A stretch of 64,000 nt of DNA from assembly GCA_038087875.1 (NCBI GenBank), contig CM075994.1, positions 11,410,001 to 11,474,000 of the forward strand, read 5' to 3'. The DNA comes from Malacoraja senta. Its lineage: Eukaryota. The notes under the pieces are model-generated. The model was not told the DNA's origin. It saw only the letters and a list, made by a program, of their open reading frames with translations, and did not search any database. The position numbers and the translations under genes are program-made. Below, piece by piece: positions 9,118 through 45,684 of the stretch. The stretch's first letter is position 1, and the number at the start of each line of letters is the position of its first letter.

Positions 9118-9410
9118 ACATTTAATTAATTTGACGACGACCGCAAAAGAGTACAGTAATATGTTCTTTAACACTGTTCTGTATTTTCTTTCAACCACTG
9201 CATAAATAAATGTGTTTTGCACGGGTTCAGAAGCTGCAGTATATATCATATCTTTTCTGAAGGAGTATTCAACATTAGTAACGTTTACGTATACGAAATA
9301 AATCGTGGATACGAGCCAAAGTAATATGAAACTGCTAGATATAGAAATCAACAACATTATGGATTTCGTGCGGTTCTCTAGCTCTTGGTCATTCTGATTC
9401 ACAGAGGATA
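9118..9410 (-). pseudogene. GPR139-like GPCR fragment (ICL3-TM6-TM7-helix 8)
   Basis: DQELENRTKSIMLLISISSSFILLWL...NTFIYAV...KLIK aligns to the C-terminal third of the 41766 ORF; internal deletion/frameshift; TM1-5 absent. Confidence 0.85.
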
Positions 9411-9807
9411 ACGAGGTACGGCTCCCGTTAAAATTGCGAATTTGCCCAATCTGTTGAAATTTTACAGTAATGTATCAATGATCTCAATTCTGTATTGGTT
9501 TGAACGGAATAGGTCAAACCTATGAAATAAAATTAATTTGTTAAGAGACAAATTATCCATATGTGTCTTGTTCCCCATATTTGTTACATGCACAAATCTT
9601 GCGATGAAATTGGATATTTTGAACAATCGAGACAATTTGGATGTCTCTACAACTTCAATGTTGAAACCTGTTGTGATCAATGTACTGCGAATGCATTTAC
9701 CGTGGCGAGAAGATGATCAGGCAATCATGTAGTACCTTCTCCAATGTCTGTGATTTGTCCCGCCGCTTTGTGTGGATTACCCAATTGTATCCTTAATAAC
9801 CTCTGAA

Positions 9808-10200
9808 TAGACAAAATACAATAGACAATAGCCAATCGGCCCTTCGAGCCAGCACCGCCATTCAATGTGGTCATGGCTGATCATAGCCAATCAGTACCCC
9901 GTTGCTGCCGTCTCCCCATACCCCCTATCTTTAAGAGCCCTATCTAGCTCTCTCTTGAAAGTATCCAGAGCACCGGCCTCAACCGCCCTCTGAGGCAGAG
10001 AATTCCACAGTCTCACAACTCTCTGTGTGAAAAACTATTTCCACACGTTCCAAATGGCTTACGCCTTATTCTCAAGCTGTGGCCCCTGGCTCTGGACACC
10101 CCCAACATCGGGAACATTTCGCGTCTCTAGCAAGTCCAAACCCTTAATAAACTTATATGCTTCAATTAGATCCTCTCTCATCCTTCTAAATACCAGAGTA
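9808..10200 (-). mobile_element. CR1 3' end fragment
   Basis: Homologous to 46160-46560, with (ATTGTCT)n-type tail. Confidence 0.85.
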
Positions 10201-10534
10201 TACGTCAGAATATTTCAAAGGAGCAGCAAAATTGAGCTCTTCAGATGATCGGAATATTTCTCACCGCAGGAGTAGTTTTCCATGCAATCAACTCAGCATG
10301 GTGAATATTAAAAGCAAGAGTCGGCCATCTGGCTGTCAGCTCCACCCATCCGTTACTTCCCTCATATTTCATAATTACGTGAAACGCCGAGATTATAGTT
10401 GGTTTTAATGCCACGCCGGCCATTATTTCAGTAATGTTCAAGCAGCTAGCGCGGGGATAAGCTTCTTGGAATGATTTTAAGTTGGTTAACACGGTTTAAC
10501 AGCTGACAACCCAATAGCGCAGAAGGCAGAGCCA

Positions 10535-10700
10535 CTGATTTTCAGTCAGAGACCATTGCTTAATCCGGGTCTCTGTGTGAAGTTTGCACATTCCCCTGTC
10601 AGCGCATGGTTTCCTCTCGGTGCACTCTTTCTCTCCAACATTCCAAGAATGTGTGAGTTAATAGGTTGATTGGCAACTGTAAGTTGCCTCTGCTGTCTAG
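10535..10700 (+). mobile_element. Old HE1-like SINE remnant
   Basis: GTGTGAAGTTTGCACATT...GGTTTCCTCTCGGTGC...GTTGATTGGCAACTGTAAGTTGCC. Confidence 0.55.
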
Positions 10701-12699
10701 GCAGTGATAAGGTCTATTTGGATCAAGAGGGGATTTTGATGAGAATCCGGGAATGGTAATTTGTTTTGGTTAATGTAAACAATAATTCATATTCGTTACG
10801 TACTCGGTGAAGAAGCACTCCCTCCAGAAACGTCGCATATCAATGTCATCCGGACCTGCCCGTGGTGAGCCCTGGCAACTGACCTCAGCCGGGCGAACGA
10901 CAATTAGCAGAGACAGCAGCAACGCCGCAGCTTGGCGCCAACCCGGAGCATGCGCCCTTTTCAGGGCGGGCATCTCTGGATGTCAAACTGGATGGCATCA
11001 CCCTGCTGCGGACTTCTGCTGACTCAAACGCAAGAGGAAGAAGAAGTCATCCGGAGACGTTGTCTGACCATCTAACATATTCCGATACATTGTATCTTTT
11101 TTTGGTAATATCGCATCTGCAATTCCTCGTATCTGCAACTTTTATGTGTACTTGATGGGCTCAAAGGCTCGTGTTAGTGTTGCATCCCAATTATATTTGA
11201 CTCAGTGTGCCACCCCACCATTTAATATGTTATATTATAGCCGATCCCCCAACTAACCCACAGCAGAGAGGTATTAAGAAAAGTAGAAAAAAACAGCAGG
11301 GGAAGGAACAGTTAAAGGATTTTAGTTCAACAAAGTACATATTATGGGAGCGCCACACTGAATATTGCACATCGACTGAGTACAACAAGCAGGATCCCAT
11401 TAATATAGTCCATCAATCAAAGCATACAACACTTGAACTCAGCTGGAGATAACAAGTAATTGTGAACAATATTCTGAGGGTGGAAGATAATGTTGCCCAA
11501 TGTCATATCAGCAACATAATCATGGTAATCCTAGCCCAGAAATATGGATAGCCATAAATTGTTGCGAGGGCTTTCAGAGCTTCGCCGAAACGGGATTTGA
11601 AAGAGTGGGACTCACTCAGCATCTCCAAAGCCACACCACCATCTGTAAGAAAAGATGTTCTCCACTTGGTTGAACGAGTACCTCTCCATAAACATTCGCA
11701 TATCGGATGCTTTCTACTCACCACTAGGCTTTTGAACGACCGGACCACTCTCAATAAATGAGGAGCAATCGTATTTAAATTGTCACGTGGAATCCTATGT
11801 ATGAGCAAGACTAGAGGCAACATCTGCCGATCGTTTTTCTGAACACCCCGTCTCCGCTTATCCGATCTCCCTGTTGCCAAACATTTAACTTCCCCTCCCC
11901 GCTCCCCTATTGACCTTTCTTACACGGGATTCCTCCACTGTCAAAGTTACGCTAAAATGGCAATGTTTACGACGTTCTCAAAGTCCAACTTCGATAGCCA
12001 TTACTCCTCGGAGGATGGTTAGGAGGTATATTTTACGCACTCACGACACACTCACGACACACATAAGGCACACTTAAGATAGCAAAAACGAATCTTCCAA
12101 ACGTTGTTCCTTGATTACTTGGTATTTTATTGAAGTAGTACATAGCAAAGAAATAATCCTTCACTTTTCGTTCTTAACCGCTATTCCATTAATGTCATAT
12201 TAATCATCTAAACGTTTTTTTCTTATAAAATATGTCGTCTCATTAACATGTGTGAATGAATGGTAAAAAAACTGTATTCCCACCATCCTTCCAAGACCCA
12301 ACTGACCCAATCTATGAGTCTGCGCAAGTCTACTCTAGAAATAGACACACCCCTTCTACATATCAAATCCCACCTACACAAATACAGACAGATAAAGATT
12401 AAAATATTTAAAATGTTAGACATGGCTATAATATACCGACAGGCTTAATGGCTCCTACAGAAGCTATATGCAACTTTAAGGAACAGAACCACATATTTCG
12501 CTTGTGTAGCTTACAACCAAGAGGTATTAATGTTAATCTCTCTAATATTCAGTAAATCCTGCATTCCCTCTCTCTTCCCCTCCCTTACCCGAGTAGTCCG
12601 ACTGGTTCCTACGTTCGCAACCTGTATCCATTCGTTATCACATCTTTATTCCTTGAATCTTCATCGTCCCACTATAGCGCACACCGTCGAATCCTAGCT

Positions 12700-13775
12700 A
12701 CAACCTCATAAATCTTCTCTGCACCCATTCCCGCTTGACAGCACCATGGTTCCCAAAACTGAACACAGTACTCTAAATGCGGCCTCACCAACTCCAGGAG
12801 AACTGCCCGCGTCTATATTCAATATTCTGAATAACGAAGGCCAATTTGCTGAACTCGTTTTGACCACCCTATCTACATGTAACACCGCTTTCAAGGAACT
12901 ATCAATATTCAAGATTCAAGATTCAGGATTCAATTTAATTGACACGTACCAATTAAGATACCGTGAAATTTGAGTTAATAAACAGCCATACTAAGTGAAA
13001 AAACAACAATACACACAGCCACATAAATTAAAATTTAACATAAATATCCACCACAGTGAATTCCATCTTCAATTAAAGTTCAATCATCTTCCTCCGTTGT
13101 TCACCCGTGGTCGGGCTTTTGAAACCTCCGCAGTCGCCGCTGCCGACGGTCCGATGTCCGAGCCTTCGCGTCGGGATGATCGAATCTCCGGGCCGGTCTT
13201 CAGGAAAGGCCGCACCCCACGTTTTTCGCCACAGGGGGGACGGAGATTCGATGCGGCGAAAAATCGAATCTTCATCGAGGAAAGTGAGTTAAAAAAAGTT
13301 TCCCCCAATCCCCCCCCCCCAACCCCCACATAAAACAGCCCAAGAAACATTAAAACATACTTTAAAAAAATACTTAAAATAACAAAAACAGAGAGGGGAC
13401 AAACAGACTGTTGGCGAGGCAGCCACTGCGGCGGCGGCACCCGGTGGTTAACTGTGAACCTTTACTCCCAGTTCCGTCGGCTCCACAACATTCCCCAGAG
13501 CCATATTATTCGTGTTAAACTTCCCAAAATTCAACCTCACATTTATCTGCATTAAATCCCATTAACGATCCCTCAGCCAACCTGTCCAACCGATCAAGAT
13601 CCTGCATATATTTCTGACAATCATCTCCCCTAACTACAATAGCCCCACTTTTGTTTCATCTGCAGATTTGATAATCATGCCATGCACGTTCTTATTCGTC
13701 ATTGAATTAAATGTCAAACTGCAATGGGCTCAGTACCAATCGCTGAGGCACACCACTGGTGACAGGCCTCCAGTC
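12700..13775 (-). mobile_element. Old CR1 RT fragment interrupted by a GC-rich insertion
   Basis: SSLKAVLHVDRVVK (compare SSLKVESHVDRVVK); CR1 sequence resumes at 13450. Confidence 0.75.
12903..13449 (-). mobile_element. GC-rich non-autonomous retroposon with (TTGAATC)n tail
   Basis: Microsatellite tail at 12908-12932; splits the CR1; imperfect TSD AACTAT/AACTGT. Confidence 0.7.
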
Positions 13776-13777
13776 GG

Positions 13778-14448
13778 CTGAAGAAGGGTTTCGGCCCGAA
13801 GCGTTGCCTATTTCCTTCGCTCCATACAAAGGATACAAAGGATACAAAGGACATTTATTATCACATATACCAATTGGTGTAGTGAAATTTGACTTGCCAT
13901 TTCAGCACACGAATAAAGGTAAGACACAACCTTAAAGAATTTAACAATAAGCATAAAAAACCACCCCCCACAATGGTTCCCACAGTGGGGGAAGGCAGCA
14001 AAGGCCAGTCCTGTCCCCTGTTCAACCATAGTCGGGCCTATTGTGGCCTCCGTGGTCGCCGCTACGGCAGCCCGATGCTTCAGGCCCTCTTGCCGGGAAG
14101 ATGGAACTCCGGCGTCGGGTGAACACTCCTCAGCGGCTTGGAATCTCTGGAGCGGCCGCTTCCTCCCCGGAGACCGCGGCTCCCGAAGTCCTCAGGCCGC
14201 GCTGGTTGGAGCTCCGAATCTGGAGATCTCGGATCCCAGGCTCCGCGGTGTTTTAAATCCAGCGCCGGCCGCGGCTGGACGCTCGCAGCCACAGCTCCTC
14301 GATTTTGGAGTCGGCGGTTACAGCACTCCGGAGCCCAACGCACGGCGACCCGGTGAGGCATCGCCCGCTCCGTGACGGTGTTTGAGCGCTGAGCCGCCGC
14401 CCATAGATGCTGCCGCACCCGCTGAGTTTCTCCAGCACTTTTGTCTAC
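13778..14448 (+). mobile_element. Penelope-like terminal repeat (hammerhead-like motif) split by an insertion
   Basis: CTGAAGAAGGGTTTCGGCCCGAAA...CGCTCCATA | CCATAGATGCTGCC...TTTGTCTAC. Confidence 0.75.
13827..14400 (-). mobile_element. GC-rich non-autonomous retroposon, 5'-truncated, (CCTTTGTAT)n tail
   Basis: TSD CCATA at 13822-13826 and 14401-14405; AATAAA before the tail; 3' region resembles 18668-18860. Confidence 0.8.
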
Positions 14449-15755
14449 CATCCACCATCATCCTTTGCTTCCTTCGGAAGTGATCGAAGTCAACGTTGAT
14501 GTTGATCAGGACTTCTGTATTGGTAGTCTGAAAATAATTGAACAGCGTGTATAATACACCCAATGCCATGTTGGCGGTGGGTTGTGCTAGTTCATAAATT
14601 GTGGACAAGATATTCGAAGTGAATTACGTTGGTATATACGACGAAACATTGACCAAAACACAGGCATCGTAGCCTTTCTCCTTGCCCGAAGATTGCACCC
14701 TGCTGCTGCAATAAATGGAGACACCCCAGGTTGTGTGACAGGGTTCGTTGAATTGGGATGAGCCATTTATTTGTGCAAGAAAAACACAGCGGCACTAATT
14801 TTCATTTGAAGCATCGGTCTTCCTCTCAGTTCTTCAATCCTATCTTGGATGATTAAACATTAGCTAGGGATATGCGGGATAACGGGAGCAGGTGCCTACA
14901 TTTGCGTCGTTTGGGCTACCTGTAACTTCTATTTGAGACTCAAGGGAAAAACATGGCATTGTCAAGGCGTTTCAGGTTTGTGTGTTAAAAGACTAACACG
15001 CTTAGTCGCTGAATCCAACCCGTCATGCGACCTATTGATTCAACCCAACTGACATTTATTGACAGACTGCCAGCCTTTCTGCATCTTGTCCAACAATATA
15101 TATTTTATTTATTTTGATATAAAATGGTCAACTCCAATTTGATTCACATGCTCAGAAATGTAATTGTTATACATCATTGTGTGCGTTTTGCTTCGCTATT
15201 CCACGCAAATCATATGGAACACTTTTAGCAATTGTATTTTATTTTCTCCATGTGTGAAATGATTTCATTTGATTTGCTTTGTTTTGTTAATGTCATCTTT
15301 ACCAGTGTGAAGTGTTATGTGTGTTCCATCCACTCAAATAACACCTTACATGATACAATTAAGCAGTATCAACGTACAACAGAAGATCATAGAAGTGCAA
15401 AGACAGAAATAGCAGAAAAGAACATATAGTTTTACAGCATTCTAGCTTTGCAGTTTCAGAGACCACGTCCAATGGCCTCAATGCCTTTTGATCGTAGATC
15501 ATGAAACAACCCAACATAGGCTCTCAATGTTAGTGCCGAAGATAATGTCAAAATTAACAAATCACATCTGCCAACTATTTCTCCATTCCCGGCATGTAAC
15601 AACACGCACATCGAAATGAGTGCAATCAGCGAGTTCGGTATTTCGAAAAACGCAAAGAATCATGGGAATTCTCAAAGATCAATGGCAAAAAAAGAAAAAG
15701 GGATAACTGAAGGTAAATTCTTATCTTTATACATGATTTATGTGTAAAAATATAT

Positions 15756-16399: not shown

Positions 16400-16503
16400 A
16401 TTATACCCTCGCGGTTTACCTGAGATATAAATAAGACACTAACCATGAAAGCAGGAGATTTGCAAGCTTTTTCAACTAACTGGAAACATCACATTCAACG
16501 ATT
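16400..16503 (+). promoter_or_regulatory. Putative core promoter (TATAAA 16426-16431) and 5' UTR of GPCR pseudogene
   Basis: Homologous to, and at the same distance from the ATG as, 45788-45685 of the intact paralog. Confidence 0.6.
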
Positions 16504-16573
16504 ATGGGACTGCCCGTAAAATTACTGGTAGATCGCATCTACTATTCCATTCTTGTAATAATTGGAGTTCCTG
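16504..16573 (+). pseudogene. GPR139-like pseudogene, coding exon 1
   Basis: MGLPVKLLVDRIYYSILVIIGVP(G)|GTAAG; 70 nt, phase-1 donor. Confidence 0.85.
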
Positions 16574-21823: not shown

Positions 21824-22716
21824 CTAATATATTGACAATCTCCATCCTGTCCACCGGAAAGTGTGGGCTCTCCATATGCATAACCCGATATCTAGTATGG
21901 ATGGCGGCAGCTAACCTATCGCATCTGATATTTGGTCCAATACTTTTTGAGATTAATGATGCGTTTTTCCACGTCCAGTCCTAGATTACACTCCAATCTG
22001 CCGTCTCAATATGACCTTGATTTATATTGTTATTGATTGTTCCGTTTGGTGGACTGTTTCGTTTACCTTTGATCGATTTGTTTCTATTTGTTGTCATTCG
22101 TTAAAAAGTAAGTAATGCACTGAAAAAAATTCAACAACGGTTATAACGATCGTTTGTTCATTATGCATTGTTGAAAATATGCCGGTTTTCTTCTTACTTG
22201 AACCACGTGAAATAATTGACAATGTGCCCTGGTACAGCACTGCAAAACCAAGCTTCTATAATTTACCTATCTGGGCTGCATTCTTATAGTTAGAGACCAT
22301 CTTAACACAATTTCTATCATTTGTGTTGATCTTCCTGTTCAACGCCTTAATAATAAGTCATATTATACGGGCGAACAGAATCAGAAACAAACTACGGGGA
22401 AACGAAATTGAGAAGTGCCGGATGGTTCAAGAAATTGAGAATCGCTAATTTTACTAATCGCGATATCTGGTAGTTTCCTTCTATTGTGGACGGTAAATTT
22501 TGCTTGCTTTGTTGCTCTACATTTTACCGATAATCAACTGATGAAATCTGATTACAGAGATCATTCGCCGTTGCAGAAGAAACTGGATTCCAGTTAAGAG
22601 TTTTAAGCACTTGTCCAAACACGTTCATTTATGCTGCGTCTCAACGAAACTGCAGAGATGAAATGAAGAAAATGATTAAACGGCCTCTTGTTTTACTTTC
22701 TAAATTATTGAAGTAA
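21824..22716 (+). pseudogene. GPR139-like pseudogene, coding exon 2
   Basis: TTTGCAG acceptor then ANILTISILSTGKCGLS...TFDRFVSICC...NTFIYA...KLLK*; frameshift ~21968, stops TAA 22113 and TAG 22287, deletion after ENR ~22445, frameshift ~22560; AATAAA at 22907. Confidence 0.92.
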
Positions 22717-24200: not shown

Positions 24201-24419
24201 TCTAAAACCTGTCGATACTGTAAAGGTATGGAGAATGAAATGGGAGATGGATATTTACATAGCCTGGCTCGTTCCAATATGACTATGCGACATTCAGTAG
24301 TTTGCGCAGAGTGGTTGAGCTGAGTAATGGGCGGAAGAGAGTTGCTACCTCACCGAGCTCTTGACCCAAGTTTGACATTCACCTCGGATGATATCTGTCT
24401 GGAATTTGCACATCCTCAA

Positions 24420-27165
24420 TGTGATTGGAAACTAAATATTCCAGGATTTCGTTGCTTCAGGGATGATAGAATTGGAGGGGCAAGAGGTGGGGGTGTTGCA
24501 TTGCTTGTCAAGGAAGATACAGCAGTGCTTTGGCAGGATAGATTAGAGGGCTCGTCTAGGGAGGCTATTTGGGTGGAGCTGAGAAATGGGAAAGGTGTAG
24601 CAACACTTATAGGGGTGTATTATAGACCGCCAAATGGGGAGCGAGAATTGGAAGAGCAAATATGTAAGGAGATAGCAGATATTAGTAATAAGCACAAGGT
24701 AGTGATTGTGGGAGATTTCAATTTTCCACACATAGACTGGGAAACACATTCTGTAAAAGGGCTGGATGGTTTGGAGTTTGTAAAATGTGTGCAGGATAGT
24801 TTTTTGCAGCAATACATAGAGGTGCCTACCAGAGAAGGGGCAGGTGGCGGAGGTAAGCGTTGGGGAGCACTTCGGGTCCAGTGATCACAATACCATTAGT
24901 TTCAATATAATTATGGAGAGGGTGAGAACTGGACCTAGGGTTGAGATTTTTGATTGGAGAAAGGCTAACTTTGAGGAGATGCGAAAGGATTTAAAAGGAG
25001 TGAATTGGGACATGTTGTTTTATGGGAAGGATGTAGAAGAGAAATGGAGGACATTTAAAGGTGAAATTTTAAGAGTACAGAATCTTTATGTACCTGTTCG
25101 GTTGAAAGGAAATAGTAAAAATTGGAAAGAGCCATGGTTTTCAAAGGAAATTGGACACTTGGTTCGGAAAAAGAGAGAGATCTACAAAAATTATAGGCAG
25201 CATGGAGTAAATGAGGTGCTTGATGAGTATAAAGAATGTAAAAAGAATATTAAGAAAGAAATTAGAAAAGCTAAAAGAAGATATGAGGTTGCTTTGGCAA
25301 GTAAGGTGAAAGTAAATCCAAAGGGTTTCTACAGCTATATTAATAGCAAAAGGATAACAAGGAATAAAATTGGTCCATTAGAGAGTCAGAGTGGACAGCT
25401 ATCTGCAGAGCCAAAAGAGATGGGGGAGATACTGAACAATTTCTTTTCTTCGGTATTCACCAAGGAGAAGGATATAGAATTATGTGAGGTAAGGGAAACA
25501 AGCAGAGTAGCAATGGAAACTATGAGATTCAAAGAAGAGGAGGTGCGGACACTTTTGAAAAAAATGAAAAAGGATAAGTCTCCAGGTCCTGACAGGATAT
25601 TCCCGAGGACATTGAGGGAAGTTAGTGTAGAAATAGCAGGGGCTATGACAAAAATATTTCAAATGTCATTAGAAACGGGAATAGTGCCGGAGGATTGGCG
25701 TACTGCGCATGTTGTTCCGTTGTTTAAAAAGGGTTCTAAGAGTAAACCTAGCAATTATAGACCTGTTAGTCTGACGTCAGTGGTGGGCAAATTAATGGAA
25801 AGGATACTTAAAGATAATATATAAGCATCTGGATAAGCAGGGTCTGATTAGGAACAGTCAACATGGATTTGTGCCTGGAAGGTCATGTTTGACTAATCTT
25901 CTAGAATTTTTCGAAGAGGTTACTAGGGAAATTGATGAGGGTAAAGCAGTGGATGTTGTCTATATGGACTTCAGTAAGGCCTTTGACAAGGTTCCTCATG
26001 GAAGGTTGGTTAAGAAGATTCAATTGTTGGGTATTAATGGTGGAGTAGCAAGATGGATTCAACAATGGCTGAATGGGAGATGCCAGAGAGTAATGGTGGA
26101 TGGCTGTTTGTCAGGTTGGAGGCCGGTGACTAGTGGGGTGCCTCGGGGGTCTGTGTTGGGTCCACTGTTGTTTGTCATGTACATCAATGATCTGGATCAT
26201 GGTGTGGAAAATTGGATTAGTAAGTATGCAGATGATACTAAGATAGGTGGTGTGGTGGATAATGAAGTAGATTTTCAAAGTCTACAGAGAGATTTAGGCC
26301 ATTTGGAAGAGTGGGCTGAAAGATGGCAGATGGAGTTTAATGCTGATAAATGTGAGGTACTACATTTCGGCAGGACAAATCAAAATAGGACGTACATGGT
26401 AAATGGTAGAGAATTGAGGAATGCAGTTGAACAGAGGGATCTAGGAATAACTGTGCATAGTTCCCTGAAGGTGGAATCTCATGTAGATAGGGTGGTAAAG
26501 AAAGTTTTTGGGGTGCTGGCCTTTATAAATCAGAGCATTGAATATAGAAGTTGCGATGTAATGTTAAAATTGTACAAGGCATTGGTGAGGCCAATTCTGG
26601 AGTATGGAGTACAATTTTGGTCGCCTAATTATAGGAAGGATGTCAACAAAATAGAGAGAGTACAGAGGAGATTTACTAGAATGTTGCCTGGGTTTCAGCA
26701 ACTAAGTTACAGAGAAAGGTTGAACAAGTTAGGTCTTTATTCTTTGGAGCGCAGAAGGTTAAGAGGGGACTTGATAGAGGTCTTTAAAATTATGAGCGGG
26801 TTAGACAGAGTTGACGTGGATAAGCTTTTTCCATTGAGAGTAGGGAAGATTCAAACAAGGGGACATAACTTGAGAATTAAGGGGCAGAAGTTTAGGGGTA
26901 ACATTAGGGGGAACTTCTTTACTCAGAGAGTGGTGGCTGTGTGGAATGAGCTTCCAGTGGAAGTGGTGGAGGCTGGTTCGATTTTATCCTTTAAAAATAG
27001 ATTGGATGGGTATATGGACGGGAAAGGAATGGAGGGTTATGGTCTGAGTGCAGGTAGATGGGACTAGGGGGAAGTATTTAATTTTTTTTTTAAATAGTTC
27101 GGCACGGACTTGAAGGGCCGAGATGGCCTGTTTCCGTGCTGTAATGGTTATATGGTTATATTGTG
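24420..27165 (+). mobile_element. Young CR1 (HER1-like) LINE, 5'-truncated, copy 1
   Basis: APE (YRPP, GDFN, SDH), RT (PGPD, DFSKAFD, YADD); 2-nt frameshift near 25820; (ATGGTTAT) tail. Confidence 0.95.
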
Positions 27166-27862
27166 ACTGCAGTTTCCACTGGATGTTCCGACTTCTTCCC
27201 ACATCACAAAGACTTTCAAGTTGGCAGGTTAATTGGCATCTGTAAGTTGCCTCTTGTTTGTAGCACCTGAATGGACAAAGTGGAACAACACAGACCAAAT
27301 TTGCCAGGGTGATCGATAGTTGGGGTGGAAGCGGTGGGAGTCGTCATACGGTGAAAAATATTATGCAGATGATCGTCATCAGATCAAATGTGACAGAGCG
27401 TAATTAATTGGGGGAATATATAGAAAGCTGTGAAGTACGTTCAAGATTACTGTGGAAATCGGGGTGCAACAATCCTCTTACCCGAGAAAGACGGGGGATG
27501 AATAAAGCGGAAGATCAATTGTCGTGTACGTTGAAAATCATCAGGGAAGGTGGTGCTATATCTGGATTCGTTTAACACGGGCTAACAACCAATCCAATAC
27601 GTTCACACATATGAAGACACAAGAAACTGCAGATATTGTAGACACAAATTGCTGGTGTAATTTACGGCGTCGTACAGTACCTTTGGAGAACATGGTTCGT
27701 TAACTCTTCTGGTCAGGGAATTCTTCACACTGATTGTGCTTGTTCCTGTGTAGAAAGATGGAAGAGAGTTGAGATTGGGACAAAGTCTGGCATGGTAGGT
27801 GGATAGGTGAAGGGGGTTGATCGGCGGATGGTTTCACGTGGATAGAGGGAAGGGAGACACGA

Positions 27863-30240
27863 GTGCCTACTAGAGAAGGGGCAGTCCTGGACCTCCTGTT
27901 AGCAAATGAGACCGGGCAGGTGGCGGAGGTAAGCGTTGGGGAGCACCTCGGGTCCAGTGATCACAATACCATTAGTTTCAATATAATTATGGAGAGGGTG
28001 AGAACTGGACCTAGGGTTGAGATTTTTGATTGGAGAAAGGCTAACTTTGAGGAGATGCGAAAGGATTTAAAAGGAGTGAATTGGGACATGTTGTTTTATG
28101 GGAAGGATGTAGAAGAGAAATGGAGGACATTTAAAGGTGAAATTTTAAGAGCACAGAATCTTTATGTACCTGTTCGGTTGAAAGGAAATAGTAAAAATTG
28201 GAAAGAGCCATGGTTTTCAAAGGAAATTGGACACTTGGTTCGGAAAAAGAGAGAGATCTACAAAAATTATAGGCAGCATGGAGTAAATGAGGTGCTTGAT
28301 GAGTATAAAGAATGTAAAAAGAATATTAAGAAAGAAATTAGAAAAGCTAAAAGAAGATATGAGGTTGCTTTGGCAAGTAAGGTGAAAGTAAATCCAAAGG
28401 GTTTCTACAGCTATATTAATAGCAAAAGGATAACAAGGAATAAAATTGGTCCATTAGAGAGTCAGAGTGGACAGCTATCTGCAGAGCCAAAAGAGATGGG
28501 GGAGATACTGAACAATTTCTTTTCTTCGGTATTCACCAAGGAGAAGGATATAGAATTATGTGAGGTAAGGGAAACAAGCAGAGTAGCAATGGAAACTATG
28601 AGATTCAAAGAAGAGGAGGTGCGGACACTTTTGAAAAAAATGAAAAAGGATAAGTCTCCAGGTCCTGACAGGATATTCCCGAGGACATTGAGGGAAGTTA
28701 GTGTAGAAATAGCAGGGGCTATGACAAAAATATTTCAAATGTCATTAGAAACGGGAATAGTGCCGGAGGATTGGCGTACTGCGCATGTTGTTCCGTTGTT
28801 TAAAAAGGGTTCTAAGAGTAAACCTAGCAATTATAGACCTGTTAGTCTGACGTCAGTGGTGGGCAAATTAATGGAAAGGATACTTAAAGATAATATATAA
28901 GCATCTGGATAAGCAGGGTCTGATTAGGAACAGTCAACATGGATTTGTGCCTGGAAGGTCATGTTTGACTAATCTTCTAGAATTTTTCGAAGAGGTTACT
29001 AGGGAAATTGATGAGGGTAAAGCAGTGGATGTTGTCTATATGGACTTCAGTAAGGCCTTTGACAAGGTTCCTCATGGAAGGTTGGTTAAGAAGATTCAAT
29101 TGTTGGGTATTAATGGTGGAGTAGCAAGATGGATTCAACAATGGCTGAATGGGAGATGCCAGAGAGTAATGGTGGATGGCTGTTTGTCAGGTTGGAGGCC
29201 GGTGACTAGTGGGGTGCCTCAGGGGTCTGTGTTGGGTCCACTGTTGTTTGTCATGTACATCAATGATCTGGATCATGGTGTGGAAAATTGGATTAGTAAG
29301 TATGCAGATGATACTAAGATAGGTGGTGTGGTGGATAATGAAGTAGATTTTCAAAGTCTACAGAGAGATTTAGGCCATTTGGAAGAGTGGGCTGAAAGAT
29401 GGCAGATGGAGTTTAATGCTGATAAATGTGAGGTACTACATTTCGGCAGGACAAATCAAAATAGGACGTTCATGGTAAATGGTAGAGAATTGAGGAATGC
29501 AGTTGAACAGAGGGATCTAGGAATAACTGTGCATAGTTCCCTGAAGGTGGAATCTCATGTAGATAGGGTGGTAAAGAAAGTTTTTGGGGTGCTGGCCTTT
29601 ATAAATCAGAGCATTGAATATAGAAGTTGCGATGTAATGTTAAAATTGTACAAGGCATTGGTGAGGCCAATTCTGGAGTATGGAGTACAATTTTGGTCGC
29701 CTAATAATAGGAAGGATGTCAACAAAATAGAGAGAGTACAGAGGAGATTTACTAGAATGTTGCCTGGGTTTCAGCAACTAAGTTACAGAGAAAGGTTGAA
29801 CAAGTTAGGTCTTTATTCTTTGGAGCGCAGAAGGTTAAGAGGGGACTTGATAGAGGTCTTTAAAATTATGAGCGGGTTAGACAGAGTTGACGTGGATAAG
29901 CTTTTTCCATTGAGAGTAGGGAAGATTCAAACAAGGGGACATAACTTGAGAATTAAGGGGCAGAAGTTTAGGGGTAACATTAGGGGGAACTTCTTTACTC
30001 AGAGAGTGGTGGCTGTGTGGAATGAGCTTCCAGTGGAAGTGGTGGAGGCTGGTTCGATTTTATCCTTTAAAAATAGATTGGATGGGTATATGGACGGGAA
30101 AGGAATGGAGGGTTATGGTCTGAGTGCAGGTAGATGGGACTAGGGGGAAGTATTTAATTTTTAAAAAAAATAGTTCGGCACGGACTTGAAGGGCCGAGAT
30201 GGCCTGTTTCCGTGCTGTAATGGTTATATGGTTATATTGT
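27863..30240 (+). mobile_element. CR1 copy 2 (duplication product)
   Basis: ORFs 27863..28900 and 28947..30143; same frameshift as copy 1. Confidence 0.95.
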
Positions 30241-30938
30241 GACTGCAGTTTCCACTGGATGTTCCGACTTCTTCCCACATCACAAAGACTTTCAAGTTGG
30301 CAGGTTAATTGGCATCTGTAAGTTGCCTCTTGTTTGTAGCACCTGAATGGACAAAGTGGAACAACACAGACCAAATTTGCCAGGGTGATCGATAGTTGGG
30401 GTGGAAGCGGTGGGAGTCGTCATACGGTGAAAAATATTATGCAGATGATCGTCATCAGATCAAATGTGACAGAGCGTAATTAATTGGGGGAATATATAGA
30501 AAGCTGTGAAGTACGTTCAAGATTACTGTGGAAATCGGGGTGCAACAATCCTCTTACCCGAGAAAGACGGGGGATGAAAAAAGCGGAAGATCAATTGTCG
30601 TGTACGTTGAAAATCATCAGGGAAGGTGGTGCTATATCTGGATTCGTTTAACACGGGCTAACAACCAATCCAATACGTTCACACATATGAAGACACAAGA
30701 AACTGCAGATATTGTAGACACAAATTGCTGGTGTAATTTACGGCGTCGTACAGTACCTTTGGAGAACATGGTTCGTTAACTCTTCTGGTCAGGGAATTCT
30801 TCACACTGATTGTGCTTGTTCCTGTGTAGAAAGATGGAAGAGAGTTGAGATTGGGACAAAGTCTGGCATGGTAGGTGGATAGGTGAAGGGGGTTGATCGG
30901 CGGATGGTTTCACGTGGATAGAGGGAAGGGAGACACGA

Positions 30939-32683
30939 GTGCCTACTAGAGAAGGGGCAGTCCTGGACCTCCTGTTAGCAAATGAGACCGGGCAGGTGGC
31001 GGAGGTAAGCGTTGGGGAGCACCTCGGGTCCAGTGATCACAATACCATTAGTTTCAATATAATTATGGAGAGGGTGAGAACTGGAACTAGGGTTGAGATT
31101 TTTGATTGGAGAAAGGCTAACTTTGAGGAGATGCGAAAGGATTTAAAAGGAGTGAATTGGGACATGTTGTTTTATGGGAAGGATGTAGAAGAGAAATGGA
31201 GGACATTTAAAGGTGAAATGTTAAGAGTACAGAATCTTTATGTACCTGTTCGGTTGAAAGGAAATAGTAAAAATTGGAAAGAGCCATGGTTTTCAAAGGA
31301 AATTGGACACTTGGTTCGGAAAAAGAGAGAGATCTACAAAAATTATAGGCAGCATGGAGTAAATGAGGTGCTTGATGAGTATAAAGAAAGTAAAAAGAAT
31401 ATTAAGAAAGAAATTAGAAAAGCTAAAAGAAGATATGAGGTTGCTTTGGCAAGTAAGGTGAAAGTAAATCCAAAGGGTTTCTACAGCTATATTAATAGCA
31501 AAAGGATAACAAGGAATAAAATTGGTCCATTAGAGAGTCAGAGTGGACAGCTATCTGCAGAGCCAAAAGAGATGGGGGAGATACTGAACAATTTCTTTTC
31601 TTCGGTATTCACCAAGGAGAAGGATATGGAATTATGTGAGGTAAGGGAAACAAGCAGAGTAGCAATGGAAACTATGAGATTCAAAGAAGAGGAGGTGCGG
31701 ACACTTTTGAAAAAGATGAAAACGGATAAGTCTCCAGGTCCTGACAGGATATTCCCGAGGACATTGAGGGAAGTTAGTGTAGAAATAGCAGGGGCTATGA
31801 CAAAAATATTTCAAATGTCATTAGAAACGGGAATAGTGCCGGAGGATTGGCGTTTAATGCTGATAAATGTGAGGTACTACATTTCGGCAGGACAAATCAA
31901 AATAGGACGTACATGGTAAATGGTAGAGAATTGAGGAATGCAGTTGAACAGAGGGATCTAGGAATAACTGTGCATAGTTCCCTGAAGGTGGAATCTCATG
32001 TAGATAGGGTGGTAAAGAAGGTTTTTGGGGTGCTGGCCTTTATAAATCAGAGCATTGAATATAGAAGTTGGGATGTAATGTTAAAATTGTACAAGGCATT
32101 GGTGAGGCCAATTCTGGAGTATGGAGTACAATTTTGGTCGCTTAATTATAGGAAGGATGTCAACAAAATAGAGAGAGTACAGAGGAGATTTACTAGAATG
32201 TTGCCTGGGTTTCAGCAACTAAGTTACAGAGAAAGGTTGAACAAGTTAGGTCTTTATTCTTTGGAGCGCAGAAGGTTAAGAGGGGACTTGATAGAGGTCT
32301 TTAAAATTATGAGCGGGTTAGACAGAGTTGACGTGGATAAGCTTTTTCCATTGAGAGTAGGGAAGATTCAAACAAGGGGACATAACTTGAGAATTAAGGG
32401 ACAGAAGTTTAGGGGTAACATTAGGGGGAACTTCTTTACTCAGAGAGTGGTGGCTGTGTGGAATGAGCTTCCAGTGGAAGTGGTGGAGGCTGGTTCGATT
32501 TTATCCTTTAAAAATAGATTGGATGGGTATATGGACGGGAAAGGAATGGAGGGTTATGGTCTGAGTGCAGGTAGATGGGACTAGGGGGAAGTATTTAATT
32601 TAAAAAAAAATTAATGTTCGGCACGGACTTGAAGGGCCGAGATGGCCTGTTTCCGTGCTGTAATGGTTATATGGTTATATTGT
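30939..32683 (+). mobile_element. CR1 copy 3 with 635-bp internal deletion
   Basis: Junction GGATTGGC|GTTTAATGCTG near 31852. Confidence 0.95.
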
Positions 32684-33129
32684 GACTGCAGTTTCCACTG
32701 GATGTTCCGACTTCTTCCCACATCACAAAGACTTTCAAGTTGGCAGGTTAATTGGCATCTGTAAGTTGCCTCTTGTTTGTAGCACCTGAATGGACAAAGT
32801 GGAACAACACAGACCAAGTTTGCCAGGGTGATCGATAGTTGGGTTGGAAGCGGTGGGAGTCGTCATACGGTGAAAAATATTATGCAGATGATCGTCATCA
32901 GATCAAATGTGACAGAGCGTAATTAATTGGGGGAATATATAGAAAGCTGTGAAGTACGTTCAAGATTACTGTGGAAATCGGGGTGCAACAATCCTCTTAC
33001 CGGAGAGAGACGGGGGATGAAAAAAGCGGAAGATCAATTGTCGTGTACGTTGAAAATCATCAGGGAAGGTGGTGCTATATCTGGATTCGTTTAACACGGG
33101 CTAACAACCAATCCAATACGTTCACACAT

Positions 33130-34135
33130 ATGAAGACACAAGAAACTGCAGATATTGTAGACACAAATTGCTGGTGTAATTTACGGCGTCGTACAGTACC
33201 TTTGGAGAACATGGTTCGTTAACTCTTCTGGTCAGGGAATTCTTCACACTGATTGTGCTTGTTCCTGTGTAGAAAGATGGAAGAGAGTTGAGATTGGGAC
33301 AAAGTCTGGCATGGTAGGTGGATAGGTGAAGGGGGTTGATCGGCGGATGGTTTCACGTGGATAGAGGGAAGGGAGACACGAGTGCGAAGGCTGTTGGGGC
33401 GAATTGCAGGGGGGGGTAGAGGGTGGGTGTCGAAGGGGGGAGTAGTAGTTTCGGTTAGTTACCAAATATTGAAGGGTTCAGTGGTCATACCGTTAATTTG
33501 TAAAATATTCAAGCGGAATATGAGATGGTGTTCCAACACTTACGTGTGGCATTACTCTAACAATGAAGGAGGCCAAATACACGAATGCATGTGGGAATGG
33601 GTAATCGAGTTTTAATGTTTAGTAACCGGAATATGGTGTACCACCTCCCCGACCGAGAGCAAGTATTCGGTGAGATGGTCGCCTCATCAACGCTTGGTCT
33701 TGCCGAAGTAAAGCGTCCACATCGGGCGCACCAAAAACAGCAGATGACGTCAGTGGAGGTGCCTGCGAATCTCTCTCTCACGTAGAACGACTACTGGTGG
33801 CATTGGACGGATGTAAGGCATGATGGCAGGTGTTACATCTCCTGTGCTGTAGGGGATGGTACCTGGTTAGGCTGCAAACGGATAAGGGAGAGCGGTCTTT
33901 ATGGAAGCCGAGAGGTAGTGGGGATGGGAAGATGTGTGGGGTAGATATGGAGAATAATGTGTTGGATAAGGAGACAGGTGGCTGAAATTTAAGGACCTGG
34001 GGAACCATTTTGTAGTTCCGTGCGATGGCAAGGGGGCCGAGAGCAGAACTGCAAGACGGAGAGGAAATGTGGGTGAGGATGCACCCATCATAGCAGCGGG
34101 GAAACTACGTTTACTCAAGAAAGAGGACGTCCATC
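33130..34135 (-). mobile_element. Old Penelope-like element (GIY-YIG region plus terminal repeat)
   Basis: RCNTC; RERFAGTSTDVICCFWCARCG then, after a frameshift, YFGKTKR**GDHLTEYL (compare YIGETKRRLGDRFAEHL). Confidence 0.75.
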
Positions 34136-37795: not shown

Positions 37796-37839
37796 TGTGA
37801 TGTTTCGCAGAGTGCTGGAGTAACTCAGCGGGTCAGGCT

Positions 37840-39569: not shown

Positions 39570-39820
39570 TTTAGTCATAGAGTGGTGCAGTGTGGAAACA
39601 GGCCCTTCAGCCTAACTTGCCCACACCGACCAACATGTCCCATCTACACTAGACCCACTCACACGCGTTTGGCCCATATCCATCTAAACCTGTCCTATCC
39701 ATGTACGTGTCAAAATGTCTCTTAAATATTAGGATAGTCCCAGCCTTAACTACCTCCTCTGGCAGCTCGTTCCATACACCCACCACCCTTTGTGTGAAAA
39801 AGCTACCTCTCAGATTCCTG
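39570..39820 (-). mobile_element. CR1 3' fragment
   Basis: RNLRGSFFTQRVVGVWNELPEEVV. Confidence 0.85.
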
Positions 39821-39821
39821 T

Positions 39822-40062
39822 AAATTTCTGAAATATTGGTCATAGATTTGCTGTAAAAAAGCTCCAAAATAAGGCTCAGGATGCATCAGAGAGCATCTAA
39901 AACCCCTGAGCTTCCTGGGCCCTTAAGCGGGCCCTGGACCCTGTCATCGAGGGACTTCACGCTTCGTGCTCGTGATGTGCGCAGCGCGCACATTCTTTTA
40001 CATTATTTTTTTTGTAATCCTGTCATGCCACCCCCCATTTTGTGAAGCTTCGTACAGGCCTG
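39822..40062. mobile_element. Possible end of a hAT-type MITE
   Basis: Ends ...GCTTCGTACAGGCCTG; internal palindrome GGGCCCTTAAGCGGGCCC; partner TIR not found. Confidence 0.3.
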
Positions 40063-41765
40063 TTTACACAACCTATTCTTTGTTTCATACTAGTTTAGGA
40101 GTCGCAGGTAGTTAAACTATACAATTGCCACCTTCATTCAGATAGTAAGATGAAGATCAAGTAACAAATGTGCTGATCTGAACTGGAAACAGTAAATGCT
40201 GGAGAACCAGTATCTGTGGGACGAGCAACAGTCAACGTTCCGGTGGAGAAATATAAAAGGTTTTAGCTTCCACGTTTTTCTTTTATTCCATCACAGTAAT
40301 TTGCACTTTCCTTTCCGGCAACTGTGCAAAGATTTAATGATGTTGTAGCAGGGTAACAAAAGTTTATTTACCTATTATGGATCATATCAAGGTATGGAGT
40401 GCACTTAGAAGTCATTGAATGAATAAGGACTATAGTGGTCAAAAGAGAAGATTGTTTAGCCAGAACGCGGTGCATATTTGAAAGTCTTTGCCACAAATGG
40501 CTGTAGAGGTCAGAACATATGGTACTTTATAAACCGATAACTGGTACAAATGCCCTTGATCAGTAAGGACGTCCAAAGCTACCGAGAGAATGAAGGAGAA
40601 TGCGGTTGAGAAGGAAAGAAAATTCGCCATGATCGACTGGCAGAGTCGACGGGTCGAAAAACTTAATTGTGCTCCAATGTCTGAAAGTCTTATGGTCCAA
40701 GGAGCGTTAAATCTGAAGCAATGTCTCATCGGGTATAGTCTGCATGTAATTGTGCGTGGGAACACTTCACAAATATTGCGGCATTTAATAATATGGATGA
40801 AGGCAGTGAACAATGCCTAAATGAATTTTATTCAGGCATTTGTCAAGATCTCACAATGTAGAGCAGGCCAGTAGTCTACTTCACAGGGAGATCAATGCAA
40901 TGTTGTCATTTTTGTGATAAGGCCCCGGGGTGGTGGTGGAAGATTTATTATCTCATTAGAAAATATGCGGCCAGCGGTGGGCTTTAGATCGGTGATGGAT
41001 CTTTGCTTTTTTTCATTAAATTGCTAATTCGGTGCGTATGTTGGATATATGATCAGCGAGTTTGAGGATGACAGGAAAAACATGGATGTTGTGGACCGCG
41101 AGGAAAATTAACTGAGCTTGCAGCTGAATATCGAACAGATAGAAACCTTGACGGAACATTGCACGTGAATTTTATCCCGAGATGTGAGAAGTGAGGAATT
41201 TTGCGAAAGCAAATACTTGTGGGTAAAGAAGGCAAATGCATTGCGGCAAGGGATGCCGAGAAATGTGAAAACCGGGACGAACTGATACAGTTATATGAAA
41301 TTATATGAGGCACGTGCAGTATTGAAAGGCAAAAAGAAGAGGAACTGTGTTTAAGGTTGGATGATATCGTTGTTAAAAGCTTCCATCAGCTCAGTGGGAA
41401 AGAACATCATTTAAATATTCAGTTACCCTTGGCGTCCGTCAGGCCACAAAACGTTATTTTTACATTCCGTCTGTCTTTAATTCCACCCGGTTTATAATAT
41501 ACCATATTATACTGACTTGAACGATTTTCTGTTTCTGATGATAGACAATGGACTTCAAACTAAGTTGTCGTCATAAATGCGATGAGTAAATGGAAACAAA
41601 TATACTATTTCAATGAACGTACATTATATTTCAAAAATATCACTTTGGTTTAGTATTGGTTCATGGTAACTAAATAGGGAAACAAAATCCCAAGAAATTG
41701 TGGAAAGGGATACCACGACAAATCCTATTACATGTTACAGATATATATGTGTGCCTCGCAAATTA

Positions 41766-42712
41766 TCACTTGATTACATATTTGGATAAAGTTCGTTTTG
41801 TGTTCAAACGTTTGAATATATTAGCAATGGCAAGAAAGGGACGTGAAATTACATTCTTCAGTTCCTCTCTGAAGTGTCTCTGAGAAACTGCATAAATGAA
41901 AGTGTTTGTGCAAGTACTCAAACACCTCAGCATATAGCCACTTGTTTCCGCAATGGTGAACGAGTCGTTGTAATCTGTTTCCAATAATTGAGTATCTGTA
42001 AACTGTACACAGATGAAGCACACAAGGTTTACCATCCATAAGAAAATAAAGTTGCCAGATATTGCAACGAGTAAAATGATCGATTTCCTTCTGTTCTCAG
42101 TCTCTTGATCAGTCTGACATGCCTCTCTATTACTCCCTCGGAGCTTGCTCCTGACTCTGTTGGCCACGATAATATGCTTTATGGTCAAGGTATTAAGCAG
42201 AAGAATCAACACAAATGGCGCAAATGGGGTTAAGAGTGTTTCAAACCATAAAAACGCGACCCAGGTGGGTAATGTGTAGAAACTTGACTTTACATTACAG
42301 GACCATGGTACATCATTAATTACTTCACGTGGTTCAAATATAAAGTAGATTGGAATATTTTCTAAAATACTCAACATAAACACCGCTGTTATTACTTTCA
42401 ATGCCGTCTTCATGGTACAATATTTTGAACGCAACGACTGGCAACATATAGCAACAAATCGATCGAATGTAAAAGTGACAGTCAGCCAGACGGAACAATC
42501 GAGCGAAATATAAATCAGTGTAATAACAAAACTGCAAATGGGCGTGTAACCGAGGAATGAATGCGGAAAATATGCCTCTTTAATCTCATAGAGAATTACA
42601 CTGGAAATCAGTACCATTAGATCAGCTACCGCCATTGATTTCAGATACTGGATGACACATCTAGTGAGGCCGCACTTTCCAGATGACAGGATAAGGATTG
42701 CCACCAAATTTG
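41766..42712 (-). CDS. GPR139/GPR142-like class A GPCR, coding exon 2 (intact)
   Basis: Open 947 nt after the TTGCAG acceptor; MAVADL (TM2), TFDRFVAIC (TM3), ECL2 Cys, TM5 P, NTFIY (TM7), helix-8 FREEL. Confidence 0.93.
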
Positions 42713-43029
42713 CTGCAACCAAAAGATGAAAATTGAATTACGAACGAGAAATAACCCGCAAAATATATATTCATTTGCTTCAATTTGTCATGCGTGTACG
42801 AGTTTTTCTTGCCTATAACACTTTGGAATAACAAACTATATTACACAGGTTTACGGTTGGACCCCTTTTAATTCTCAGACTTCTCATAAAGTGAACACAC
42901 TGTTGCGCTTTGTTGTTATCGCATCTCCGTGAAGGGACTAGCTATTGTTTTGGTGATATTAATGCCACATAACACGAAATGTTGATCACATCTAGAGATG
43001 AGATGGTATTTGTCCTCTCCGCTTCCTTT

Positions 43030-43370
43030 AGTTCACACGCAACTGTGTCGCCGAGATGTTAACGGCTAGATAGTGTCCTGGCTTAATGACACTATGTACC
43101 GGATTTCCTTCCTCTATTTCGTCTCATCATTATTGTCGAAGTGCCCGTCAGCAGTGGCATCATCGGCATACATAAACACCGAGTTACCGTTGTACGTGGT
43201 CAAACACACATGGGTGTATTTGGAGTAGAGCATGGACTGAGCACACAGCTCCGAGCAGTAGCAAATATTGTGGGCTATCCTTGTAGAGACGGTAAAACCA
43301 ATTCCACGTGATAGGAGCCTGCCTGGCCTGAAGTCCAAAGCCCATTTGCAGCTGGATACCCGTCGACCAA
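43030..43370 (-). mobile_element. Old Rex1-like RT fragment in intron
   Basis: SVFMYADDATADGHFDNNDETK. Confidence 0.65.
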
Positions 43371-43589
43371 GGATGTTTAGAGATACTTATTAATTTCAGA
43401 TTTTATTTGTCACGTGTTTGGCACTCATGTTACCTTAGTTTATGTCGTGGAAACCGCGCCTCCCCACTAATAATCACACAGATTTAATTTTCGCAGTTTA
43501 TCTGCAAATGTGACATTTAGAACAATGTACATTGTTGCCCCCCTCTGCATACACACTTCTCACATTCCTCATTCTGTTCCTCTACTGTA

Positions 43590-44570
43590 ATAAATTAGCA
43601 GGGACAATCGCTAACATTTTCATGGCAACCTGCTGTCCATTTCTCTCCCCTTACACACGTACACACATTCATTTCCGATATGGCTGACCAAGCAGGCTGA
43701 CGTCTGATATCCGCTACATAGGCTGTGCGGCGGATGCGATTCACACATGAATTCGGCACACATATCATGGACCGAGGTCCAGACTTTCGAAAAGCCAGAC
43801 AACCTTTGATACTTAACATTTATCGCCAGTTTTATTTCGGTGGTGTCTTGACGCTTTTGAAATTCAGTCAATCACAGATGGCAGACGGTTGCTCCAGAGC
43901 CAACAAAAACCGGGCAACACAACTCAACGGCAGAGGCACAACCTGTCGATAAGTTCACAGCTTCAACCGTCATGATCGGCTTTCAACACAAGTACATCCC
44001 GACCCGCTCTACTGACTGACAGGTTAGCATTCTCCTGCTAAAAATTTGTAGTTTGCAAACCACTAAATGCGTGGGATCGTTGTCTATCCTGCAAGACGAA
44101 TTCATTGGGAAACATAAATGTAAGACCCATGCGCTAGAGGTCTGCGTGGGCATCCCCGGAATAACCCTGTTGGTCGTCCGACAACACGTGTTGAAGGGCT
44201 CTAGCAAGAGGTTGAATTCCGGTTTGATAATCTTGAACACTTGCAAATATGTAACCATTTAAAGAAGCAACACGATGCAATTTCTCGAGCTGTGACTGCT
44301 GTAGGTCTGATGGGTTAAATGCGAACATACGACTTCTCAGCTCAATAATGTCGAGGTACCGCAATCTAATACACTTTTGGTGATAAGCAACATCATGAGT
44401 AAAGAGAGAGCGTGCTCTTGGAAGTGATTAGGCGTTGTCTCGACCCAAACTACAAAACTTGGAGCATGCCATAATCTCCGCTACACAACTCATCGCAGTT
44501 TGCAGATGGATCCTCAACACTTTAATCACCTCTCGGCGATAAGAACAAAAATGTTAGCGATTAAAACTGG
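43590..44570 (-). mobile_element. Possible highly decayed hAT (Spin/Buster, GTF2IRD2-like) transposase
   Basis: Ordered fragments SDLQQSQLEKLH, FKIIKPEFNLLLEPFN, VWTSV, SAISEMN resemble the hAT C-terminus. Confidence 0.35.
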
Positions 44571-44591
44571 CAAAACAGTCTAAAAGCAACA

Positions 44592-44670
44592 GGTAACCCA
44601 AAACGTCACCCATTCCTTCTCTCCAGAGATGCTGCCTGTCCCGCTGAGTTACTCCAGCATTTTGTGTCTA
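44592..44670 (+). mobile_element. Short Penelope-tail insertion with 14-bp flanking direct repeat
   Basis: GTCTAAAAGCAACA at 44578-44591 and 44666-44679. Confidence 0.8.
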
Positions 44671-45614
44671 AAAGCAACAAGTGTTTTACCTTTCTACTGA
44701 ATGTCTGCTGAATGTAAAAATTAAATCTTCCTGAAATGCAACGGCGAATTTTCTTTTTCCTGCTGTCAAATCTAGGTCAAATCAGGACCATTAGACAGTT
44801 TCACTTCGTGCAACTGGTATTTAAATGTTACAATGCTTTAAAAGAAACCACGTTGCTCAGCCTCAGTAAACCGTGAGCTAATTTTAGCTGAGCATTCACA
44901 ATGGAAATAAAAGACGTGTGTTTTATGGAAACTCACCGACAGCATCCCTCGACTTGCATGTTTTATTTCGCGGTAAGTTATCAGACAGATGAGGCACCCG
45001 CGATCATAGCATGCGCACGGACTCGCACACAAGACTAACATTCTTTAGCGAGAGTTACAGAATACAGAGAACAGCGTCCATCAAACCGTTGTTTTTTTTA
45101 TTTCGGCCGTGAAGTCTAAAGTTAAAATCAGTTATGATCGATAATGCTCAGCAGCAAGCCGCCGTACGTTTACTTGTTCTTCGTATAATGAAGCTATGCA
45201 AAATCAACTGCATGGAATGAAAATAGAAAGAGCTTGAAACATCGCGTTTATATGCAGACCCCTCTTTGGAAGCGTTGAATCGGCCATTGTTCAGGTGGAC
45301 TGTGTATGAGGTGGAGAAGGAGGGCTGTTGTATCCAGTGGACTTGACTAATATAAAATATATAGAATATTATATTACTTATAAAACGTTTATATATAATT
45401 TTCCCGTCAGAGAAATTCAATCATTTTTCCACATGATTTTTAGATCCCGTACATAAGTGAGATCAGCACGATACTTTGTTTTTGACAGCACTTTGTTTGC
45501 AATAATAATTTCATAGAAATCTGTAATGTTTTCAGATATGTTTGCCATGATGTTCAATATCGTCTGTCAAGCACATCAACGTACATCTGTAAAACCATTC
45601 TCTGGCTCACCTAC

Positions 45615-45684
45615 CTGGGACTCCAATGATTGCAAGAATAGGATAGTAAATACTCTCGGTCTTCAGGAGTGCAGGCTTGTTCAT
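45615..45684 (-). CDS. GPR139/GPR142-like GPCR, coding exon 1
   Basis: MNKPALLKTESIYYPILAIIGVP(G)|GTAGG; 70 nt phase 1; joins exon 2 in frame to give 1017 nt, 338 aa. Confidence 0.9.

Follow-up and report, generated by a model that had tools for sequence, protein, structure and literature searches.

In mammals, GPR139 and GPR142 are single-copy receptors activated by aromatic amino acids. Their genes have two exons, and the human and zebrafish orthologs of GPR139 are 70% identical (PMC7318219). Tryptophan, phenylalanine and synthetic agonists bind GPR139 at a site made up of F109, H187, W241, R244 and N271, where the arginine, R244, is modelled in contact with the polar or charged part of the ligand (PMC5430874, PMC8807744). 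Beside GPR139/142 stand two orphan clades, GPR210A and GPR210B, reported from coelacanth, gar and some fishes by Rinne et al. (2019), who used Ensembl genomes and in whose paper the word 'shark' is absent (PMC6504862). The sister group of GPR139/142 is formed by the protostome receptors of the MIP, proctolin, RGWamide, myosuppressin and FMRFamide type 1 kinds, which have expanded in protostomes (PMC8557429). Cartilaginous fishes have been described as poor in G protein-coupled receptors (GPCRs) (PMC8455134), and ten species of them carry totals of 20-62 complete olfactory receptor genes each, with 6-13 ORs (PMC10869828). Here, a 64-kb window of the genome of the skate Malacoraja senta (GenBank assembly GCA_038087875.1, contig CM075994.1, positions 11,410,001 to 11,474,000; 64,000 nucleotides) is described that holds an intact receptor gene (A), a pseudogene of the same kind (B) and two decayed fragments (C and D), which belong to a large GPR139-related family expanded in cartilaginous fishes, with a binding pocket unlike that of GPR139.

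Gene A encodes a class A (rhodopsin) GPCR, with seven helices, the DRx and NxxxY motifs and the Pfam domain 7tm_1 (70 bits for exon 2, against a cut-off of 30.5), a domain matched by all 54 members of a diverse set from which a family profile was made. The AlphaFold model of a zebra-shark member, P0012 (predicted local distance difference test score 93), is that of a standard class A receptor with seven helices and helix 8; its second extracellular loop is a beta-hairpin, and the model ties structurally with many peptide receptors, such that fold searches fail to set GPR139 apart from the others (Foldseek rank 6; VIA-align Z of 27.6 vs 28.7 for the top match). The family profile ranks GPR139 first in the PDB, that is, among receptors of solved structure only, with 85.8 bits (E 2.4e-23) and 59.9 bits for the next. 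Further likenesses to GPR139 and GPR142 are the sequence identity of 24-26% that they share with the zebra-shark model, higher than that of any other structure matched to it, a gene of two exons, an NPxxY motif without its proline, and a retained W6.48. By itself, exon 2 of gene A matches GPR139 with 29 bits (E 4.6e-6), which is rank 11 of 32 PDB sequences and no better than other peptide receptors. This score, the many paralogs and the loss of the tryptophan/phenylalanine site described below rule out gene A as the GPR139 ortholog. Because true orthologs remain as close as those of human and zebrafish, the family is best regarded as a sister lineage of GPR139/GPR142, and its database label as a nearest-neighbour name; GPR139 and GPR142 are in neither of the two trees built here.

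The nearest relatives found outside the cartilaginous fishes are a coelacanth protein (P0151, 216 bits with the profile) and a salamander protein (P0141, 254 bits), each about 30% identical to gene A. Both group with the family in a single clade (ultrafast bootstrap, UFBoot, 99), and for both GPR139 is likewise nearest among receptors of solved structure. Within this clade P0141 is nested inside the family, with modest support and on a long branch. The coelacanth and salamander relatives may correspond to the GPR210 orphans that Rinne et al. described, in whose supplement (PMC6504862) a search by id gave no match for P0151. The salamander gene is well conserved in three species (P0141, P0169, P0172), and the coelacanth and salamander proteins are only 27-28% identical to each other. 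Invertebrate proteins, chosen by likeness to pseudogene B, match the profile with 68-130 bits, and Atlas neighbours carry the Srw domain; the protostome peptide and srw-type receptors differ from the family in that both trees set them apart from the vertebrate clade, and no Srw match was obtained for any of the 54 members at E<=0.001. Membership of the OR, V1R, V2R or T2R families is ruled out, since the olfactory, vomeronasal and taste Pfam models are unmatched in the same 54 members, where 7tm_1 is accompanied by only three weak Srx matches and three stray matches in single members. For TAARs there is, to our knowledge, no dedicated Pfam model, and an acid at position 3.32, looked for as a check on TAARs, is not among the six commonest residues there. 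With the OR, TAAR, V1R, V2R, T2R and MRGPR/FPR families the present family shares tandem clusters, pseudogenes and a pocket that varies while the signalling face is conserved; it differs from them in being of separate origin.

Relatives were collected with pseudogene B as the query and then compared locally with gene A, giving 244 clusters at 50% identity (E<=0.001), or 111 at E<=1e-10. The profile of 54 members retrieved 2056 clusters at 90% identity and E<=1e-10 among 8000 candidates, a number that is not usable as a family size because distant GPCRs can pass that threshold. All of the best 120 of these 2056 matches are chondrichthyan (63 from the horn shark Heterodontus francisci, 24 from Heptranchias, 16 from Pristiophorus, 7 from Cetorhinus and 10 others), in a ranking biased toward such proteins by a profile made from them. 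The horn shark has at least 63 distinct clusters at 90% identity, 22 of the 63 lying on records of one length (74.5 Mb), and the proteins are mutually 58-94% identical (median 78%), so that they are not mere alleles. Near-identical recent copies occur in Hypanus, Scyliorhinus and Rhinoraja. In a tree of 44 sequences, gene A belongs to a subfamily with members from one skate, from two sharks and from a chimaera (UFBoot 99), which implies that subfamilies have lasted very long. The N-terminus is about 22 residues long, and 61 of 63 members with a short N-terminus have no glycosylation sequon in it.

Clustered paralogs, species-specific recent copies and pseudogenes together mark a birth-and-death multigene family. 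A reading of this DNA from its letters alone (the sequence-only reading) had proposed such a clustered, GPR139-related family, and the profile matches, the paralog clusters and a lesion of pseudogene B shared with a relative (see below) bear it out; the opposite case that it had named, a one-to-one GPR139/142 ortholog with few paralogs, disagrees with the 29 bits to GPR139 and the at least 63 horn-shark members. Its description of the family as lineage-specific holds for the expansion in cartilaginous fishes and fails for the origin, since coelacanth and salamanders have relatives. Members carry public labels as varied as 'probable GPCR 139', vasopressin V2-like, mu-opioid-like, CCR3-like, capa-receptor-like, GPR142 and uncharacterized, so counts based on names will miss members. 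Many of their public models have wrong or fused N-termini, one being named a sodium channel.

The pocket was compared among 175 full-length members, selected from 290 proteins by a score of at least 300 bits and at least 270 of 295 columns filled, after removal of seven bony-vertebrate proteins; residues were numbered relative to the helix motifs in an alignment of the profile with GPR139. At the positions of F109, H187, W241, R244 and N271, gene A has Y, E, W, N and Y. Across the family W241 is kept in 173 of 175 proteins, and the other residues are mostly replaced: F109 is kept in 23 of 175, H187 in 26 of 174, N271 in 10 of 175 and R244 (R6.51) in 5 of 175. All five (F3.33, H5x43, W6.48, R6.51 and N7x38) occur together in none of the 175, four in one protein and three in ten. 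Elsewhere the family departs from GPR139 in P6.50, which is kept in 10 of 175, and in a cysteine in transmembrane helix 3 (TM3), present in 169 of 175 and absent at that place in GPR139. The aromatic-amino-acid site is not kept, and the ligands of GPR139 therefore do not carry over. An acid is found at 3.37 in 158 of 175 members, at 5.39 in 122 of 175 and at 5.42 in 111 of 174.

Variation is unevenly distributed over the receptor. Mean entropy is 2.30 bits at 28 pocket sites, 1.73 at 61 other sites in the extracellular half and 0.87 at 94 sites in the intracellular half; the same order is seen in the 54 diverse members and in the 63 horn-shark proteins (p=0.001-0.002), and also with residues grouped by chemistry. 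Furthermore, 62 of the 63 horn-shark proteins differ at 12 pocket sites. A pocket more variable than other positions of the extracellular half supports a diverse ligand repertoire.

The four loci lie at 6.9-45.7 kb of the window, amid fragments of long interspersed nuclear elements (LINEs) and long terminal repeat (LTR) elements (Table 1). A six-frame scan of the window with the family profile finds these loci only, with main segments of 452 (A), 194 (B), 82 (C) and 160 bits (D), as compared with best scores of 3.6-5.3 bits in three shuffles of the window; Rfam gave no match. Gene A has a phase 1 intron of 2902 nt and a spliced coding sequence of 1017 nt, which encodes 338 residues without an internal stop and scores 454 bits with the profile; the intron of B is 5250 nt long. 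The two are in convergent orientation with an identical exon layout, are 63% identical over about 170 nt of promoter and exon 1, and have a TATA-like box 78 nt upstream of the ATG.

Table 1. Receptor loci and their parts in the window (positions counted from its first nucleotide; TM, transmembrane helix)
Feature	Position	Strand	Description
Gene A, coding exon 1	45684-45615	-	70 nt (23 codons + 1 nt), from ATG to a phase 1 GT donor; short N-terminus and start of TM1; matches exon 1 of B
Gene A, coding exon 2	42712-41766	-	947 nt; rest of TM1 to stop; intact; Pfam 7tm_1, E 2e-19
Gene A, proximal promoter/5' region	45685-45790	-	TATA-like box at about 45762-45757; 63% identity to counterpart in B; putative promoter
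Pseudogene B, proximal promoter/5' region	16400-16503	+	TATA-like box at 16426-16431; conserved relative to A
Pseudogene B, exon 1	16504-16573	+	70 nt; open; GT donor; intron phase as in A
Pseudogene B, exon 2	21824-22716	+	Three frame changes (near 21966, 22439 and 22560); two in-frame stops
Fragment C	9420-9100	-	Decayed TM6-TM7-helix 8/C-terminus; 36% identity to A; 82 bits with family profile
Fragment D	7353-6967	-	Decayed TM1-TM4; one stop; 50% identity to A; 160 bits with family profile

The sequence-only reading counted three paralogs, and its intact 338-residue gene on the minus strand, convergent pseudogene of the same exon structure on the plus strand and TM6-7 fragment are all present; it overlooked the fourth locus, D (TM1-TM4). 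Fragment C has no Pfam 7tm match by itself, a search with it among longer proteins gave nothing, and it was assigned by the family profile instead; it matches a zebra-shark member at E 8e-23 (blastp). Neither C nor D yielded an exon 1 or a promoter. The two fragments do not overlap, stand in reversed order and fall on separate branches of a fragment-limited tree, and the correlation of their identity profiles (rho 0.28) lies among values close together, with medians of 0.36 for parts of the same gene and 0.26 for different genes. C and D may derive from separate genes or from a single gene that was rearranged, and the window accordingly holds two or three dead copies.

A and B differ by a synonymous divergence (dS) of about 1.5, and their ratio of nonsynonymous to synonymous divergence (dN/dS) is 0.18 over 248 codons; dN/dS between A and D is 0.26 over 99 codons (Nei-Gojobori estimates, near saturation). 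For A and B these values point to an old duplication, followed by purifying selection until B died, and not to the rapid divergence that the sequence-only reading had proposed. The closest relative of B in the protein collection is P0003 (Logan), an open frame of 332 residues, 81% identical over 160 residues, which resembles B also in the intron sequence that its called start reads through. The first frameshift of B is present, ungapped, in contigs of both runs (X1 and X2, from one study) of a relative about 2% divergent, in whose contigs the first stop of B is absent and, in a contig of one run, its 10-nt deletion is filled. A lesion common to the relative rules out an assembly error as the origin of the first frameshift, and together with the intact P0003 it means that the death of the gene is real; since the frameshift is shared and the stop is not, B died recently and went on decaying in this lineage. 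In 40 of the 90 rows of the comparison, 11 of 13 exon differences between B and the relative's copy change the residue. The pattern is lopsided, for a script check of 10 such sites found the relative in agreement with the intact P0003 at all 10, despite the shared first frameshift, and in run X2 some contigs have 1-nt variants at 22498 and 22560.

Several repeats surround the genes. Between B and A, at 24300-33400 on the plus strand, copies of a LINE segment, which we take to be of CR1 type, are arranged head to tail with a period of 3076 bp. Between two of the units there are 13 differences in 3076 sites, and part of a third is deleted; the array reflects either tandem duplication in the very recent past or a duplication made in assembly. 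A complex satellite at 47495-48567, about 1.8-2.9 kb upstream of gene A, combines an array with a 5/10-bp period (73 copies of 10 bp) with units of 64 and 86 bp, and has no counterpart upstream of B. Tandem Repeats Finder gave no 26-bp array next to the promoter of A or that of B. At 1179-5846 on the minus strand is a decayed LTR retrotransposon, with reverse transcriptase and integrase reading frames in several frames and direct repeats of 210 bp (1179-1381 and 5638-5846) that are 85% identical. Just downstream of fragment D, at 6381-6631, is a tandem repeat of 61/123 bp, with a related copy at 5844-5930.

What has been duplicated in tandem is a compact unit, consisting of a TATA-type promoter, a first exon of 70 nt and one large second exon, and its copies have long been under purifying selection, with the intracellular half conserved, the pocket diversified and copies often lost. 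The family would act as a receptor repertoire, in which each paralog binds its own set of ligands and all signal alike. Because the pocket has lost the GPR139 arginine and keeps acidic residues, the ligands might tilt toward amines or basic peptides. The likeliest use would be the sensing of external chemicals in sensory cells, such as those of the nose or the chemosensory cells of taste or skin; there is about an even chance that the family is an external chemosensory repertoire. A precedent comes from a snail, where a gene labelled GPR139 and srw-type receptors are reported to be highly expressed in the osphradium (PMC10638732).

A number of points weigh against a chemosensory role of this kind or the evidence for it. 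The 28 pocket sites are generic class A positions and not a computed pocket, and their excess of entropy over the other extracellular-half sites (p=0.002, 175 proteins) was measured within this one family. In the diverse set an acid is found in only 25 of 54 members at 5.39 and 22 of 54 at 5.42, and the acid at 3.37 may be structural. In catshark, olfactory neurons are nearly all microvillous and of the TRPC2/Go type, with V2Rs robustly expressed there (PMC10116579), so that olfaction can be explained with receptors already known; the expression of most catshark OR genes peaks outside the nose, for example in spleen (PMC11979771), which makes family type a poor predictor of tissue in sharks. 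The protostome relatives, finally, are neuropeptide receptors (PMC8557429).

Immune or somatosensory repertoires predict the same pattern of sequence as chemosensory ones. A family deployed like the MRGPRs and FPRs of mammals, in granulocytes, mast-like cells or neurons of sensory ganglia, would recognize cationic peptides and products of microbes or parasites, and this is a rather unlikely but substantial alternative. The genomic signature, of clusters, near-identical recent copies and pseudogenes, would be the same, as would the variable pocket. An acidic pocket suits cationic ligands; MRGPRX2 provides an analogy. Furthermore, according to the whale shark paper, cartilaginous fishes lack the MAS1-related family (PMC8455134), which leaves such a role open. 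Against this, the family has no sequence kinship to MRGPR/FPR, its best PDB match being GPR139 at 85.8 vs 59.9 bits.

An improbable reading is that the receptors work internally, in gut, brain or endocrine tissue, where they would sense nutrients or the animal's own peptides and so extend the roles of GPR142, a sensor of tryptophan and phenylalanine in pancreas and gut, and of GPR139, a brain receptor (PMC7318219). Its attraction lies in the protostome relatives, which bind W/F-amide peptides (PMC8557429), and in the beta-hairpin of the modelled second extracellular loop, the structural tie with peptide receptors and the TM3 cysteine of 169 of 175 members. A fixed set of hormones is a poor fit, however, to a family in which each species has dozens of paralogs, almost every one with its own pocket and many of them lost, and no member has all five GPR139 residues (four in one of 175, three in ten). 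Least probable of all is a largely neutral expansion, in which a compact gene in repeat-rich DNA was copied often and most copies are redundant in an unselected repertoire, for although two or three copies in the window are dead and LINE/LTR fragments fill it, dN/dS is 0.18 (A-B) and 0.26 (A-D), variation is concentrated on pocket sites, and the persistence of the gene A subfamily across chimaera, sharks and skate (UFBoot 99) has been long.

The family is apparently undescribed as such. Full-text literature searches, with most subscription papers outside their reach, yielded no description of it, and GPR139 was not found in the supplements of PMC8455134 (readable part of 24 files), PMC12361510, PMC13188829 and PMC9396271. 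Members are annotated singly in RefSeq, and the novelty lies in seeing them as a single family, large and diversified; one large gene-family study left out families with more than 100 copies per species, an example of how such a family can escape notice. Its tissue can be tested directly, as accessions exist for catshark members (XP_038636253-6, XP_038654761) together with a multi-tissue RNA-seq set (PRJEB35946).

Whatever the tissue, a family that has 63 or more distinct members in a single shark, hidden by the automatic label 'GPCR 139', changes the picture of cartilaginous fishes as poor in GPCRs and as having 20-62 olfactory receptor genes. More tentatively, and with chances we place below even, sharks, rays and chimaeras may have one more family of chemoreceptors, which arose independently out of the GPR139/142 lineage of peptide receptors and exceeds in size all of their known olfactory families combined. 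If so, its relics would survive in coelacanth and salamanders, and the view that these animals smell with some 40 receptors, trading discrimination for sensitivity, would be overturned.

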